This document shows, piece after piece, positions 2,790 through 35,720 of a stretch of DNA of 42,973 bases; the stretch's first letter is position 1; each line of letters starts with the position of its first letter. The position numbers and the translations under genes were made by a program. The notes beneath the pieces were generated by a model. The model saw only the letters and a list, made by a program, of their open reading frames with translations, was not told the DNA's origin and ran no database searches. Source of the DNA: Chiloscyllium plagiosum (lineage: Eukaryota); NCBI RefSeq assembly GCF_004010195.1, contig NW_025214398.1, positions 1-42,973 of the forward strand, given 5' to 3'.

Positions 2790-3664
2790 GGGTCTAGATT
2801 AGAGTGGTGCTAGAAAAGTGGTGCTGCAGTTCAGGCAGCATCCGAGGAGCAGTAAAATTGACGTTTCGGGCAAAAGCTCTTCATCAGGAATACAGGCAGA
2901 GAGCCTGAAGGGTGGAGAGATAAATGAGAGGAGGGTGGGGGTGGGGAGAAAGTAGCATAGAGTACAATAGGTGAGTGGGGGAGTGGATGAAGGGGTCAGG
3001 GTGGAATGTGTTGGTGAAGTTGATGAATTGCTCAACCTCCTCGCAGGAGTGGGAGGGGGAGTTGAAATGTTGAGCCACGGGGCGGTTTGGTTGATTGGTG
3101 CGGGTGTCTCTGAGATGTTCCCTAAAGCGCTCTGCTAGGAGGTGTCCAGTCTCCCCAATGTAGAGGAGACTGCATCGGGAGCAACGGATACAATAGATGA
3201 TATTAGTGGATGTGCAGGTAGAACTTTGATGGATGTGGAAGGCTCCTTTAGGGCCTTGGATGGAGGTGAGGGAGGAGGTGTGGGCACAGGTTTTGCAATT
3301 CCTGCGGTGGTAGGGGAAGGTGCCAGGGCAGGAAGGTGGGTTGTAGTGGGGCATGGACCTGACCAGGTAGTCACGGAGGGAACGGTCTTTGCGGAAGGCG
3401 GAAAGGGGTGGGGAGGGAAATATATCCCTGGTGGTGGGGTCCGTTTGGAGGTGGCGGAAATGTCAGCAGATTATTTGGTTTATGCAAAGGTGGGTAGGGT
3501 GGAAAGTGAGCACCAGGGGCGTTCTGTCCTTGTTACGGTTGGAGGGGTGGGGTCTGAGGGCGGAGGTGCGGGATGTGGACGAGATGCATTGGAGGGCATC
3601 TTTAACTACGTGGGAAGGGAAATTGCGTTCTCTAAAGAAGGAGGCCATCTGGTGTGTTCTGTGG
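2790..3664 (-). mobile_element. Penelope-like retroelement, 5'-truncated (RT C-terminal linker, GIY-YIG endonuclease, terminal repeat with HHR)
   Basis: Minus ORFs give MASFFRERNFPSHVV...RTPLVLTFHP and CKTC...NIIYCIRCSRCSLLYIGETG...RFREH (GIY-YIG). HHR motif at ~2855-2893. Possible TGGACA duplication at 2784-2789 and 3665-3670. Confidence 0.9.
2855..2893 (-). ncRNA. Minimal hammerhead motif in Penelope terminal repeat
   Basis: Minus strand ATTC-CTGATGA-A-GAGC-TTTT-GCCC-GAAA-CGTC-AATT. One mismatch in stem II. Confidence 0.55.
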
Positions 3665-4371: not shown

Positions 4372-7300
4372 AACACTTTCCACCCAAACATATGTGAATG
4401 CTCACCCCAAAGGTCAAAATTCTGTGTAAGTATACATTTATTGATAGAACATGTTTTATGATTACACTATTAAAGTTGAAGCTAATGTTTTACTTATGTA
4501 ACCCTTAGATCATAATCTAAAGTTCTTTACACATGAATACAGGATGTTATTTTGAGGACTAGTGAGCAATCACTTCACTTATATTACATCTGACTTCACC
4601 AACAGAAGATTATCTTCCTCTAGCCCCTCTAAAGAGGTGAAGAGCAGGACATCTGTAATGGCTCAGAGGTAAAGTCAATGTGTCTGAGACAGTCAGATCA
4701 GCAATTTCTTAAGTTTAATGTAGTATCATTAACATTACCATTAAAACAGTAGGTAGTGGAATGTCAAATGAACATAATTTGAACTGAGGTACTAATTTTA
4801 AAAGAAATTAGGTTTGATTCTTTTAGCTCCTAAGTTATTGGAAACTAAAGAAGTTTTAAGGATGATTTTCTCTGGTTTCTTGATGGGGAAGTTTAACAAA
4901 ATATATTCCTGACAGGCAATCCCTTTTACGATAAGCAGAAATCGGGAATTCAGGAATGTGTTCTCATCCAATATTTGTAATGGCCAGAAAGTCATAGCAT
5001 GCCATACTAACCCATTGCAATTACTAATACGTGCTCCTGTATGTGGATAGTGGGAACATGGAGATGACAAGCCTCAATATCAGTACAAAAATAAACCTTT
5101 TGGTAGAAACCCAAGATCACCAGGGGCTTGATTCACCAGCTTTCTGACTGGGTTGCTTGATCTAATAGGAAGGCTGCTGACCTTAATCAAGTAGTGTTCT
5201 GATGAATGGACAACCTGAACCACTTAACTAACCATTCCTCTCCATTGATGCTGCTTGACCTGCTGAGCTTTTCCAGTTTCTTTTTGGTTCTTATTTCAGA
5301 TTTCTAGTATCTGCAATATTTTGATTATTCTTAATTTGATGGCACTCCTGGCAGCAGCCTCTTAATTTTGTGCCTGGGATCACCCTGCCCATCTGTGACT
5401 GGAACCTAAGTAACTGGAGCCTGAGTAGGGAAGCCACCATAGTAAGCACAGCAGGCAGAAGCAGGTTTATGTCTGGCTTGCAGAGATAAGAGGTCCTGCA
5501 AGCATTTATTTTTCTTTGAGGGTTTAGGAGGTTGAAGAACAATCCTCCCAGCCCCACAAGGAAAGTTGCAGTCTCCTCTGTGCTCTGGACCTTTCCATTT
5601 CCATTCTATAACATTTCTCAAAATGGTCACCCAATACTTCCCTACCATGGCCCCTCTTCACACTCTGAGTAACTATGGCGAAACTCGATAAACCTGCAAC
5701 AGCCACGAGTCTTGGATCAGGACCAATTGAACATTTTGCAATTGCATCACTTCCTGCATGTCTAAAACTTGCCAGAGTTAAAATTCGACCCCTGTGTCTT
5801 TCCTCTGACTCCAAAACTACTTAATCATTCCACATGTTTTCTCCAATCCGGTTTGCAGTTCTCAGCATTCATATCAATGAATGTAGAGGTTATAAGGTAA
5901 AAGCTGCATGCAAAGTCTGAAAGTCAACAGGGGTATTCAGTCCACAGAGAATTCACGTATTTCATCGAGAAGCGAAATTGTCCTTTACTGTGCTGTCAGC
6001 ACAAGCTGTGCAGGCATCTGAAATGAAGAAGACAATGCATAAGCAATATGTCACATCAGCACCTTGAGAGGCCTGTGCCATTGACTGAAAGGATATGGAT
6101 TTTCCTTAATTGCAACTACTTCCATTATACTTTCCCAATCTTACATGGCAGTTGAAGGGAAATGTAAACTTAGGGACTGAGATAATGGGCAATACAACAT
6201 AACTTTTAATAATCTCAATCACATTAATGTACAGTCTTTTATGCCCACTGCATCAGTCATGGTGACAGCAGCCCATTGTGCCTACTCTGTCAAACATGAT
6301 GCAGCTGCATCTCATCATGTCCATTCTGTCAATCAAAGTATTACCTCATTTAACCCCCCACAAACCTATTCACAGCCATCTGTCAACCAAGATCCTGTCT
6401 TGCTTATCATCTTCAATCTGTCAGACATAGAAACACCTGCCCCTGCAGGTCCACACTGTCAGTCGCAGTGCTATGCCCTCCTAACACTAAATCTGTCAAG
6501 CATGATGGTGTCGGCTCCTCAACATTGTCTCTCAATTATAGTAATCTTGCCCATCAAGGTGAACAATATTTACATTGAGAAATAATATGTTTTCACTTCA
6601 CAGCAGACAGAATGTCAGCATCAAGACATCACAGGTTAGTAGCACTTGGCACTACTGATTTCAGAGTAAACTTCTTGTAAACTATTCCTTTAGGCCAAGT
6701 TTAGGAGAGCACCCACTACTGCACCAATAAAATAGTCCTACTTCCATATTATCTTAAGTAAAATTCTTAAGAGACAAGTAAAATACAAGTAAAATTCTAG
6801 AAATTTTCAGCAGGTGTGACAGCATCTGCAAAGAGAAAATGTCACACAATGATCTTCTGTCAAAACTGCATGTTAGCTTACATTACATCGTTTTTAGAGT
6901 TCGCCAATTCATCAAATTGCCAAATTTCAATGCTTTGTCTGTGCATAATCAATATTATATTAATTTTGGCTGTCCTTAGTAATTCACTACTGAATATTTA
7001 CAACCAGTTGAGATAAATACTCCCATTTGATTTTCCAGTACTGGATTCAATCCTACAGCTAAAGGTTGTTGAAAAACTAACCCACAGTATCACTGGGAAG
7101 CCAGGCGACATCTGACCTAATCTATAATATCCAATATCACAGCCAAAATGTGACTATGGATTAAGTAACAATAGGGGAGAAAAACGTAAATATGACATGC
7201 TTTGAAAAAATGCTGTAAAAGTGACAAATGCAATGAAAGTTTACACTAGTGAAGATATAAATTGTACTGAAAATGTGAGATGCCAAAATAATTAATAATT

Positions 7301-17145: not shown

Positions 17146-17629
17146 TTCAGGGATAACTGGTAAATTGTGTGTAATTGATACTAGATTCAGACTTTAGATA
17201 CACAAAAAGTTAAAAGAGATTTGTTCCAAAATATATATGCTTATTGCGATTGTAAAAGGTTTATAATATGAGATCATTTTAAACTATAAAGATTAACTCA
17301 ATAAACAAACACTTTACGATGTTAATAATACCAGCTGAGATGCTAAAATGTTCACATTCCAGATGCCTTGCATTCACTTGAGTCAATGCAGTTAAAAGTT
17401 CCCTTACAGCATTTGTGGCTTCAGAGACTTCCCATCAATATTAACTCTGCTTTCTTCCCACAGATGCTGTCCGACCTGCTGAATTTCACCCAAAATTTCT
17501 GTTTTTCTTCAAATGTCCAGAACTTTGTTTTACCTGAATTTCAACTGTTGGTCAGTCAGCATTTCATTCTGTGTAATTTTAGATTCAGTCAGCGAAAATG
17601 TTGAAAGAAATTCACAGCTTACTTGTCAA

Positions 17630-18022
17630 CTTAGAGTGTAAGGGTTTGAAGCAAATAAAAACTTAATCAGTTTTTTGTGAAACAGATAGAAGAAAATGAA
17701 AAAAATAGCTGTTTGTAGCAAAAGGGTTTCAAAAAAAAGAAAATTTAGTTATTTATAGTGAAAAGGTTTGAAGAAAAAGAAAAAATAGTTGTTTATAGTG
17801 AAAAGATTTGGAAAAGAAAAATTAGTTGTTTATAGTGAAAAGGTTTGAAGAAAAAACTTTATAGTGAAAGGGTTTGAAGAAAATAAACAGTTTATAGTGA
17901 CAGGGTTTTATGATAATAAACAATTATTCAGATTATAGTGACGGGTTTTAAGGTAATAAACAATTAACCAGTGTATAGTGACAGGTTTTGAAGAAAGTGA
18001 ATAATTGAGCTGTTTATAATGA
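17630..18022. repeat. ~40-bp minisatellite (core TTATAGTGAAAAGGTTTGAAG), ~10 degenerate units
   Basis: Core recurs at ~17753, 17793, 17830, 17859, 17892, 17933 and 17973, with decayed units at ~17633, 17673, 17713 and 18013. Confidence 0.85.
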
Positions 18023-18495
18023 AGGCAAAGAACTGCGGATGCTGACCACAGGAAATAGGTGTAAAACTGGAAAGTGCTGGGAAAACCCAGCAAGGTTTCT
18101 AATATCTGTGGAAGGTAAAACAGAATTAGGTTTAAAGTGTGACAGTCCACTACTGCCCTCTCTCCCTGACTCCAGAGAGTAACATCCGGGATATTCCAGG
18201 GCAGTGACCAACACGTGAGGCTGTGGGAAAGGTGAAAGGTCAGGCTGATCACGTGCTCGGGGTGAGAGGTCAGCGCCGTCTCCCACAACGATGGCTGTCC
18301 GAGGTCTGCAGCTGGCCGGATCCCGGTGAAGGAGGGTGTGGGGAAGAGGCTCTCGGAGCGGGCTGGGCTGGGCCGCGCCGCCGCAGGTTGAGCGGGGAGG
18401 ACGCGTCTGGGCCATGGGCTGCAAGCCCGGCGGTGCCTTCCAGGGAGAGGCCGGTGGAGGCTGTGCGGACCGGGGAGTGCAGTGAAGGCGGTGGG

Positions 18496-23969: not shown

Positions 23970-24327
23970 AATGTGTACAAAATAATGAGAGGAATAAATA
24001 AGAATCAATAGCCAGAGACTTTTTCCCAGGGCGGGATTGACTGGTACGAGAAGTCATAGTTTGAAGATATTAGGAGGAAGATATAAAGAAGACGTCAGAG
24101 GTAGATTCTTTACGCAGAGAGTTGTGAATGCATGGAATGCGTTGCCAGCTGTGGTGGTGGAAGCAGAGTCATTGGAGATATTTAAGTGACTGCCAGACAT
24201 GCACATGGATAGAAGTGAATTGAGGGGTGCATAGGTTAAGTTACTATATTTTGCATTAAGATTAAATCTCGGCATAACATCGTGGGCCAAAGGGCCTGTT
24301 TTGTGCTGTACTTTTCTATGTTCTATG
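23970..24327 (+). mobile_element. CR1/HER1 LINE 3' end
   Basis: YKIMRG..., FFTQRVVNAWNALP remnant, TTCTATGTTCTATG tail. Confidence 0.85.
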
Positions 24328-24452
24328 CAAGAGGGATATGCTTGTGGTCAGTTAGAAGAACTTGAAAAATGATGTCCTTCAGATGGTTTAAGATCAAGGT
24401 GGAAGAGTTTTCATTAATAAGGAAGTTGTTTATTTGGGTATATAAGAAGGTG

Positions 24453-24669
24453 CTGGAAATGTGTTGCTGGAAAAGCGCAGCAGGTCAGGCAGCATCCAGG
24501 GAACAGGAGAATCGACGTTTCGGGCATAAGCCCTTCTTCATTTCCTGAAGAAGGGCTTATGCCCGAAACGTCGATTCTCCTGTTCCCTGGATGCTGCCTG
24601 ACCTGCTGCGCTTTTCCAGCAACACATTTCCAGCTCTGATCTCCAGCATCTGCAGACCTCACTTTCTCC
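24453..24669. mobile_element. Fold-back Penelope-derived mini-element A with hammerhead motif
   Basis: Perfect 89-bp inverted repeat (24452-24540 / 24546-24634, loop TTTCC) plus a ~35-bp unique tail. 14-bp TSD TATATAAGAAGGTG at 24439-24452 and 24670-24683. Arms are homologous to the terminus of the Penelope fragment at 2790-2890. Confidence 0.9.
24541..24576 (+). ncRNA. Minimal type I hammerhead ribozyme motif (element A)
   Basis: CTGAAGA (24545-51), A, stem II GGGC-TTAT-GCCC, GAAA (24565-68), palindromic ACGT, GTC triplet (24570-72). Local stem I is only ~2 bp, so activity is unproven. Confidence 0.65.
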
Positions 24670-24851
24670 TATATAAGAAGGTGGAATTGAGGCCACAGTC
24701 AGATTAGCCATGATCTTACTGAATGGTGGAGCAGGCTAGAGGGGCCAAATGTCCTCTTTTTATTAATTTATCTCTTTGTATCTATGTGCAAGGGACTTAT
24801 CTCCAGGTTGACACCCTTCACTGTGGTAATTTGGACTGTCTCTGTTTACAG

Positions 24852-25000
24852 GTGGAAAAGATTGAGAATCGTTGCCTTGAATTGTTCAGGAAGGACTATG
24901 TTTTCAGTGTGATTCTGAATCCAAATGGAGAGCTTTGCGGACATTATCCCCGCCAAATCATCATTATGGAATATGAAAGTACGGAGGGTGACAAGGACAG
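24852..25000 (+). CDS. MTMR14: MTMR14 coding exon 2 (VEKIENRCLELFRKDYVFSVILNPNGELCGHYPRQIIIMEYESTEGDKD-R)
   Basis: Acceptor tctctgtttacag|G, donor CAG|GTAATG, 149 nt. Strong similarity to recalled human VERIEKRCLELFGRDYCFSVIPNTNGDICGHYPRHIVFLEYES. Confidence 0.96.
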
Positions 25001-26089: not shown

Positions 26090-26310
26090 ACAGAAGAATA
26101 TTGCTGATGCAGAAAGTCTGAAGTAAAACATAAAATGCTAGGAATTCTCAGCAAGTTGGATAGCATCTGTGGAGAGAAATAGGGTAAATGATTCAGGGAA
26201 GTGAAAGGTAATTGACTCAAGTTCTGTTTCTCTTTGCAGAAGCTCACTGACATGGCTGCAAATTTATAGTATTTGTTTATATTTCAGATTTGCAGCATCT
26301 ACAGTTTCCC
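26090..26310. mobile_element. Old Penelope-derived imperfect fold-back repeat
   Basis: Degenerate inverted arms (GATGCAGAAAGTCTGAAGTAAAACA... / ...TGTTTATATTTCAGATTTGCAGCATC). Central HHR is largely lost. Confidence 0.55.
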
Positions 26311-34525: not shown

Positions 34526-34773
34526 AAAATCAGAATGCAATGTTATATCCCTATGTGGCAATCAACTTCATGTGAATTCTCCTTTTCACAACGTTAATCT
34601 CAGAATCAAACAATGAGGTGTTCCAGAGCTTTTAATTGCATTATTTCATAACTACTGCTGAAAAATCTTTCTTACCCTGAGAAATGAATATTATAATTTC
34701 TAAAATGTTAGATTACAATACAAAGTTCCACAGTTTTGAAAAGTCTGAATCTACCTTAATTCCATGTGTTTGT

Positions 34774-34994
34774 GGCTGAAAATGTGTTGCTGGAAAAGCG
34801 CAGCAGGTTAGGCAGCATCCAAGGAACAGGAGAATCGACGTTTCGGGCATAAGCCCTTCTTCAGGAATGAAGAAGGGCTTATTCCCGAAACGTCAATTCT
34901 CCTGTTCCTTGGATGCTGCCTGACGTGCTGCGCTTTTCCAGCAACACATTTTCAGCCCTGATCTCCAGCATCTGCAGACCTCACTTTCTCCTCC
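34774..34994. mobile_element. Fold-back Penelope-derived mini-element B with hammerhead motif
   Basis: 90-bp inverted repeat (34774-34863 / 34868-34957, 4 mismatches, loop GGAA) plus the same tail as A. 14-bp TSD TTCCATGTGTTTGT at 34760-34773 and 34995-35008. Confidence 0.9.
34833..34868 (-). ncRNA. Minimal type I hammerhead ribozyme motif (element B)
   Basis: Minus strand reads ATTC-CTGAAGA-A-GGGC-TTAT-GCCC-GAAA-CGTC-GATT: intact core and stem II, weak stem I. Confidence 0.65.
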
Positions 34995-35720
34995 TTCCAT
35001 GTGTTTGTCCCAATCATCATTTTTCACTCTCAAATTCAATAAAGATGGAAGATAGTACTGCATTTTCTTACCTTTGATATCTGAGAGAATACTTGAACGT
35101 GAATGTTTGCCTCCCCCTTCTTGAAGACACCACTGTTACTGGATATTTGGAGATTTCCTTTAGTTGGCAACAAATTCAAACTAATATTTGGAAAGAAAGT
35201 TCTGCCACAGATATGGCTACATCTTTGTGGGCAACTTTATTTAAGCTCTGCAGCAAGCCCTGTTATTTTGCAGTTCATGGCCAAACTTATGGAATCATTG
35301 AACAGAGTGCTACAGGTGAGAATATGCTATATGTCTCCTTTGGGGTGATACTCTGGAAATCAGGCCCTGCTATTCCTGGAGTTGTCACAAAAGTTAGATT
35401 TTAAGAATACACAGAAGTTCCCAATTTACCTATCATTCAGATCCAGGTTTTCAGCACAAATCAGGTTTCTGTACTTTACAAGAATTACTACTTATTACAA
35501 ATAAATATATTCTAACTGCATATACATTTATATGAACAGTTGATGTATAACTTGAATCCTCTTATAACTGCATGCACATGTGCACACAGACTAACAAACT
35601 CAAACAGGAGAAAAAGACATGGGCAGTGGTGCCTGTTCACAGGGCTTTCTGAGGTGGTCCTTTTGTCTTATCCAGGCATTCTGCTCCTTGATTCTCCTTC
35701 TCCAAATACTTTCAATTAGC

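Follow-up and report, generated by a model that had tools for sequence, protein, structure and literature searches.

Body-less head-to-head Penelope-like insertions in Chiloscyllium plagiosum and their probable origin from two priming events

The window analyzed here is the whole stretch of 42,973 nucleotides of Chiloscyllium plagiosum DNA (assembly GCF_004010195.1, contig NW_025214398.1), which is one complete unplaced contig (C100993). It contains a short insertion, element A, upstream of a putative host exon, and a sister insertion, element B (Table 1). An exact 14-mer found at both sides of element A, taken as its target-site duplication (TSD), encloses a 217-bp insert whose two 89-nt arms are perfectly complementary (100%) across a 5-nt spacer; TSD and arm overlap by one base, since the final base of the left TSD doubles as the initial base of the arm (14 + 89). 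These dimensions had been given in the original prediction and were all recovered when re-measured. The RNA fold of element A has an energy of -202.8 kcal/mol (z -27), and none of 200 shuffles was equally stable. Its tail, a concept used for Penelope-like elements (PLEs) in the text of PMC11167929 and PMC3846280, is 35 nt long, unpaired and present at one end only, like the 30-40-bp one-end tail of EN+ PLE insertions. It had been described as unique; instead, its 30-mer has 30,440 exact matches in the genome (control, 0). Zero-mismatch arms are unexceptional among the sampled hairpins: perfect arms occurred in 4 of the 36 with arms of at least 60 nt, and the mean arm mismatch was 57/2762 sites.

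Table 1. Coordinates of the features of elements A and B and their surroundings in the window
Feature	Position	Strand	Remarks
TSD, left copy, 14 bp	24439..24452	+	final base common to arm
Inverted pLTR piece	24452..24540	-	from the inner start site (35 nt before tail end) to just short of hammerhead C3
Apex junction/loop	24541..24545	+	parent sequence plus one additional T; 33 exact copies in genome
Minimal type I hammerhead motif (pattern-based)	24545..24576	+	core 24545-24551, helix II 24553-24564
Predicted hammerhead cut of element A (pattern-based)	after 24572	+	
Direct pLTR piece (right arm)	24546..24634	+	94-95% to pLTRs adjoining RT-bearing bodies L213 and L217
35-nt Penelope tail	24635..24669	+	in the parent, tail continues into 5' leader and ORF
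TSD, right copy	24670..24683	+	
Older interspersed repeat fragment, ~70 bp, LINE-tail-like	24684..24755	+	587 candidates in genome
Host exon, 149 nt, AG/GT bounded, open (putative MTMR14 exon 2, label of the original prediction)	24852..25000	+	
Element B, sister insertion (subfamily of element A)	34760..35008	+	14-bp TSD, 90-nt arms 96% complementary

Element A lies in a putative intron. It had been proposed that the insertion took place into an older repeat, a putative CR1 tail; the older fragment is indeed present, but element A lies at its 5' edge. The exon-like segment begins 182 nt downstream of the insert, as predicted. Its 50-aa translation had no informative match in Pfam, PDB or Atlas, and a phosphatase motif was absent from the six frames in which it was sought. 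Within the assembly, the region of the exon occurs once, and the left flank of element A is at single-copy depth; a search of the organism's own assembly for a second copy or an empty allele of the locus gave none, and elsewhere only the repeat fragment matched. The left junction (24304-24475) is crossed without differences by one contig from a DNA run bearing the same organism label, possibly from the source sample. A contig of organism B, from a related run, tracks the left flank to 24437 and continues for 51 further letters that were not placed on element A, a hint of a possible empty site. A>G differences to aligned contigs do not represent RNA editing; these contigs are DNA and belong to further members of the family. 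Taken alone, the locus is unremarkable transposon debris close to a splice acceptor (182 nt), and nothing about it points to a function.

The search for the parent followed the tail outward and led to a leader and the start of an ORF, with one piece giving an RT match. An RT query returned 29,772 candidates, 150 of them scored, and the pLTR was present in 9 of the 12 stretches fetched around long open frames. One of these open frames, in L213, has 893 codons (L213:2883-5561, - strand) and contains RVT_1 (E 6e-8) together with a C-terminal GIY-YIG (E 3.5e-4; its score of 21.2 bits is just below the curated cut-off of 22.6). It ends about 170 nt before a pLTR that is 94% like that of element A. 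Several tandem copies of a stretch of about 39 residues make up the front of this frame; RT and endonuclease are uninterrupted and the N-terminus is missing. L218 follows the order pLTR with tail, a damaged, gap-containing body of about 3.2 kb, and pLTR without tail, and the right arm of element A matches its 5' pLTR at 93%. In L213, L218 and L219, the pLTR is joined to an ORF that carries RT and, at its C-terminus, GIY-YIG. The protein of L213 (P0001) has the CX2-5CxxC linker, as in the Neptune clade, a motif that also fits Nematis; the linker is given as the Neptune/Nematis type in the text of PMC8557442. Judging from these sequences, element A is the pLTR (pseudo-LTR) of a Penelope-like element whose longer copies encode RT and GIY-YIG, in agreement with the Penelope origin first proposed for it. 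All that it contains is the first ~130 nt past the pLTR boundary, present as a forward copy that includes the tail and an inverted copy that lacks it.

Other traces of Penelope are present in the window. The apex of element B differs from that of element A, and an intact hammerhead core is found only in its inverted arm. An older related Penelope 3' end at 2798-3657 (- strand) has an intact hammerhead core and no tail; its GIY-YIG region is 73% identical to residues 626-834 of P0001 and its pLTR is 80% like that of element A. A pLTR-like fragment of 36 bp (89%) is located at 5241-5276, and close to it, at 5284-5315, is a tail-like sequence from a different subfamily, seen again at 26272-26303. 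An A-rich degenerate tandem array with a period of ~40 bp occupies 17613-18025.

The census of similar inserts covered the first 90 matches of the tail 30-mer by position in contig C1 (first 8.3 Mb), that is, one exact tail variant; after removal of three duplicates (L043, L067, L094) there were 87 inserts. An adjacent inverted, 5'-truncated copy in head-to-head orientation, as in EN+ PLE insertions, accompanied 50 of the 87, whereas 34 had none and three, at gaps, were unclassified, such that the predicted recurrence of hairpin inserts was borne out. Inserts with an inverted piece span 87-448 bp and form a continuum with the solo pLTR stubs, and the TSD was 13-18 bp in 41 of 49 sampled hairpins. 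The 40 best matches to element A were ranked by likeness and hence rejected as a census. Twenty different apices, some with templated additions, were found among 23 element A-like hairpins (identical apices in 3 of 23), with end positions blurred by microhomology. Genome-wide, the apex pattern had 7,678 and 7,661 matches in the two strands (control, 2), which corresponds to roughly 9,000 loci at the approximately 60 places per 100 listed apex matches counted by eye. The copies of element A's exact apex that were fetched, 25 of the 33 in the genome, carry five loop-II variants (10, 7, 3, 3 and 2 copies) and have the tail on the opposite side in 9 cases. Since this apex recurs across subfamilies and polarities, it arose repeatedly and was not inherited from a mini-master. 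Because some apices recur, minor secondary copying of hairpins may occur, and part of the apex diversity could stem from deletions after insertion. The same asymmetric 448-bp hairpin is found in L060 (C1:1.86 Mb) and L094 (5.37 Mb), with a shared flank and 99.5% identity over 572 nt, a pair that represents a segmental or an assembly duplicate.

The ends of the inserts fall at few places. Inverted arms begin at -43 to -24 from the tail end in 43 of 50 hairpins, and at the tail end in 3 of 50. A sample separate from the C1 census comprised 40 copies, taken from those listed first among the ones with upstream sequence; their right ends fall at -39 to -26 in 22 cases, at -1 to +14 in 17 and between in one. 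The outer ends of element A coincide with this pair of end positions, which are usual in longer copies. They are the ends by which the Penelope tail is defined, and they match the two internal RT start sites of an anole PLE, whose protein, in vitro, nicks and extends both strands and templates on uncut RNA, according to the main text of PMC11167929. At the other side, 21 of the 34 solo stubs stop at -130 to -121, and 74 of 134 ends are at -132 to -121, just 5' of the hammerhead core, with 6 of 134 near the ribozyme cut. Partial tandems in L163 and L174 jump onto the same point as the inner ends. A piece of 5' leader or ORF abuts the pLTR boundary directly in L152, L157, L163 and L174, as in an RT jump off the 5' end of an RNA. 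The inner-end cluster is likely the 5' end of the element RNA, at the foot of helix I, and this RNA is likely capped and uncut, all as judged from DNA ends only. A non-parental G before the inner boundary was counted 10,476 times vs 7,267 for A and T together, an excess that is confounded by junction microhomology (the G is also part of the TSD in 2 of 3 solo cases) and to which two common apices contribute a boundary G either way; as a possible cap signature it is suggestive only. Copies reading through the supposed start point number 36,144, and therefore read-through or jumped templates are also common.

The hammerhead predicted at the apex was located on the + strand as the core CTGAAGA-A-GGGC-TTAT-GCCC-GAAAC-GTC (24545-24572); the copy on the - strand lacks C3. 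Core, paired helix II and short helix I are, as a pattern, those of the minimal type I hammerheads of PLEs. Rfam gave nothing at gathering score over the window; for the arm, a hammerhead did not appear even at E<=10, where three chance matches were obtained, so that the ribozyme call rests on the pattern. Of 100 motifs, 97 have a completely paired helix II, whose loop occurs in 8 variants and whose stem hardly varies, leaving little covariation, and helix I has 2 standard pairs in element A vs 3-4 in the parents. The monomer fold of the sense arm showed helix II only, and is uninformative on dimers. Minimal hammerheads are described as having no activity as monomers and low activity as dimers in the text of PMC4209133, and the hammerhead motif of the anole PLE as requiring protein in that of PMC11167929.

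The original prediction also held that the fold-back masks the ribozyme and protects the host pre-mRNA. This is unsupported, as the sense core survives undamaged in 15 of 50 hairpins, is lost or damaged in the other 35, and is exposed, with nothing to mask it, in 17 of the 34 solo copies; in addition, an intact + sense core is missing from element B and the junction of element A shortens helix I. Considering the loss of the core and the weak activity reported, there is little to mask and no sign of selected masking. The arrangement of retrozymes, with hammerhead cut sites in a direct repeat, is not that of element A, whose motifs are inverted, and 6 of 134 ends lie near the cut. Head-to-tail units of ~190-340 bp were observed in L154-L156, L160, L162, L170 and L192, and in the genome (G000) at C8:24157648-24158508 (five matches) and C2:96929346-96929783 (three matches); they are composed of pLTR, tail, a short leader piece and a short 3'-end piece, with intact hammerheads in direct repeat. 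Compared with element A, such units are the better match for a dimer-competent, retrozyme-like non-autonomous derivative.

We consider it probable that element A is a body-less EN+ PLE insertion, likely generated afresh at this site through two priming events, and probably one that leaves no further copies. In such an event the endonuclease would nick both target strands about 14 bp apart, and one 3' end would prime RT at the outer start site, the tail end, while the other would do so at the inner site, on uncut RNA of one subfamily. Both cDNAs would extend for ~95-130 nt, reach the 5' end of the RNA, fail to jump to the remainder of the element and be joined head to head via microhomology, short stretches being added or templated at the junction. 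In this view the hammerhead would be a passenger, and the host pre-mRNA would gain dsRNA as a by-product, on which ADAR could probably act.

The hairpins could also be produced by fold-back self-priming, in which the cDNA, or else an antisense template, bends back at the apex and serves as its own template for the second arm, in one event per locus. Self-priming on an antisense template has been proposed for head-to-head junctions in the text of PMC3846280, and the apices do carry short palindromes and microhomologies. The arms share their subfamily in all informative hairpins but one (L079), which indicates one RNA or one source locus and fits two priming events, fold-back or later conversion. 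The arm geometry expected from fold-back occurs in 7 of 50 hairpins, but in 13 of 50 the inverted arm continues 5' past the end of the tail-bearing piece by 15 nt or more, thus carrying sequence missing from it, and in L048 and L059 the two pieces are nearly without overlap. Fold-back copying of the tail-bearing piece cannot produce these arms, and it leaves unexplained that the arm ends at the inner site used by longer copies. We regard fold-back as unlikely.

Much less probable is the origin favored in the original prediction, a non-autonomous MITE-like hairpin family, transcribed and re-mobilized as a unit, with the fold-back masking the ribozyme. The fixed outer ends and the size of ~220 bp in the 40 best matches would agree with it, as would the thousands of apex matches, and non-autonomous PLE derivatives are known from the text of PMC8557442. 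However, those 40 matches were selected for likeness, and the position-ordered sample is a continuum of 87-448 bp with 20 apices in 23 hairpins, instead of the uniform length and junction expected from a master. Heterogeneous junctions, which the prediction itself had named as evidence against it, are what the C1 census contains. The apex of element A is polyphyletic, no more than 15 of 50 hairpins retain an intact core, and an unpaired 35-nt tail takes the place of terminal inverted repeats at both ends. Moreover, the main text of PMC11167929 states that the anole protein requires RNA ~55 nt past the start sites, which, if extrapolated to this element, the inserts do not have. A MITE-like origin for the hairpin class is largely refuted.

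It is highly improbable that the hairpins are longer inverted Penelope insertions shrunk later by deletion at the center of the cruciform. Long palindromes are prone to deletion, and long inverted forms are present (L059, L060, L248, L258), but 21 of the 34 solo stubs, which lack an inverted partner, end at this same position, the apices carry added and templated bases, and near-perfect young copies are already short. An assembly artefact, either a long body collapsed between inverted pLTRs or arms homogenized by the assembler, is scarcely credible even for an unplaced contig of a gap-rich assembly in which no record spans the whole insert, given thousands of loci with different and often unique apex junctions and unequal arms, the exact TSD, and the left junction present in a contig of a run.

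The hairpins are close to several known systems. As in EN+ PLE insertion units described in the text of PMC3846280 and PMC8557442, element A has a head-to-head inverted pLTR, a tail of 30-40 bp, a TSD and a palindromic junction, and the inverted pLTR is shorter than the direct one, by ~35 nt here vs 37 bp in Adineta Pen2a. In contrast with the units presented there, the hairpins have no body between the repeats, have TSDs of 13-18 bp vs 8-10 bp in Adineta, and occur in thousands of copies, being the commonest form among tail-bearing inserts of this subfamily group (50/87). The inverted shorter pLTR, the tail and the TSD were already known from rotifer and other PLEs; searches of the main texts of open-access papers gave no account of body-less shark hairpins or of a two-primer origin. 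The Anolis Poseidon PAc, assayed in vitro, is alike in that two RT start sites delimit the tail, both strands are nicked and extended, the RNA template is uncut and no ends fall at the hammerhead cut; the main text of PMC11167929 does not derive hairpin inserts from the two start sites. The parent differs from this element in its CX2-5CxxC linker, of Neptune/Nematis type, and in an ORF that begins after the tail.

The hammerheads of metazoan PLEs, as presented in the text of PMC4209133, share with those found here the bulged base before helix II, the absence of helix III and the palindromic center. They are mostly single motifs from truncated PLEs, and pairs on opposite strands, 100-700 bp apart, were noted there in 2014; unlike these, the motifs of element A abut, one without C3 and the other with a shortened helix I. 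Vertebrate Eulor repeats were considered as further Penelope hairpins and discarded: in the passages of PMC5753468, only UCON13 is given as Penelope and the word 'hairpin' is absent.

The proposed joining of two primed pieces also resembles L1 twin priming. There, a second nick primes an inverted piece and the junction forms by microhomology, the pieces being non-overlapping and the second priming point variable. Here, the second priming point is fixed, and element A-like inserts copy the same ~90 nt twice.

Beyond the single locus, we tentatively suggest, at somewhat less than even confidence, that the hairpins record a missing step of Penelope transposition, in which nicks would prime at two start sites on an uncut, capped 5' leader, and the resulting strong-stop-like cDNAs would either jump, giving full copies, or fuse, giving hairpins, with an Alu-like ADAR load as the result. 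The 89-bp intronic stem of element A is a plausible ADAR substrate, as a by-product. Palindromic Harbinger and Penelope targets of ADAR (text of PMC5625713 and PMC10636886) are comparable in that a self-folding repeat of ~200 bp forms dsRNA without a neighbor, although Harbinger, unlike the hairpins here, is a DNA transposon with a palindromic consensus; Penelope repeats are described there as heavily edited in a lizard and a frog (X. tropicalis).

The origin of the inverted repeats and tails of PLEs is an open question in the papers cited here. The two-primer model can be tested directly in the existing in vitro system, given the thousands of young copies that share two fixed outer ends and whose inner boundary is the foot of the hammerhead. 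The population of hairpins matters here more than the locus of element A. Under the model, this animal should also harbor a large class of ADAR substrates that need no partner; if true, about ten thousand self-contained dsRNA stems would be present in the transcripts of this genome, from insertion chemistry alone.
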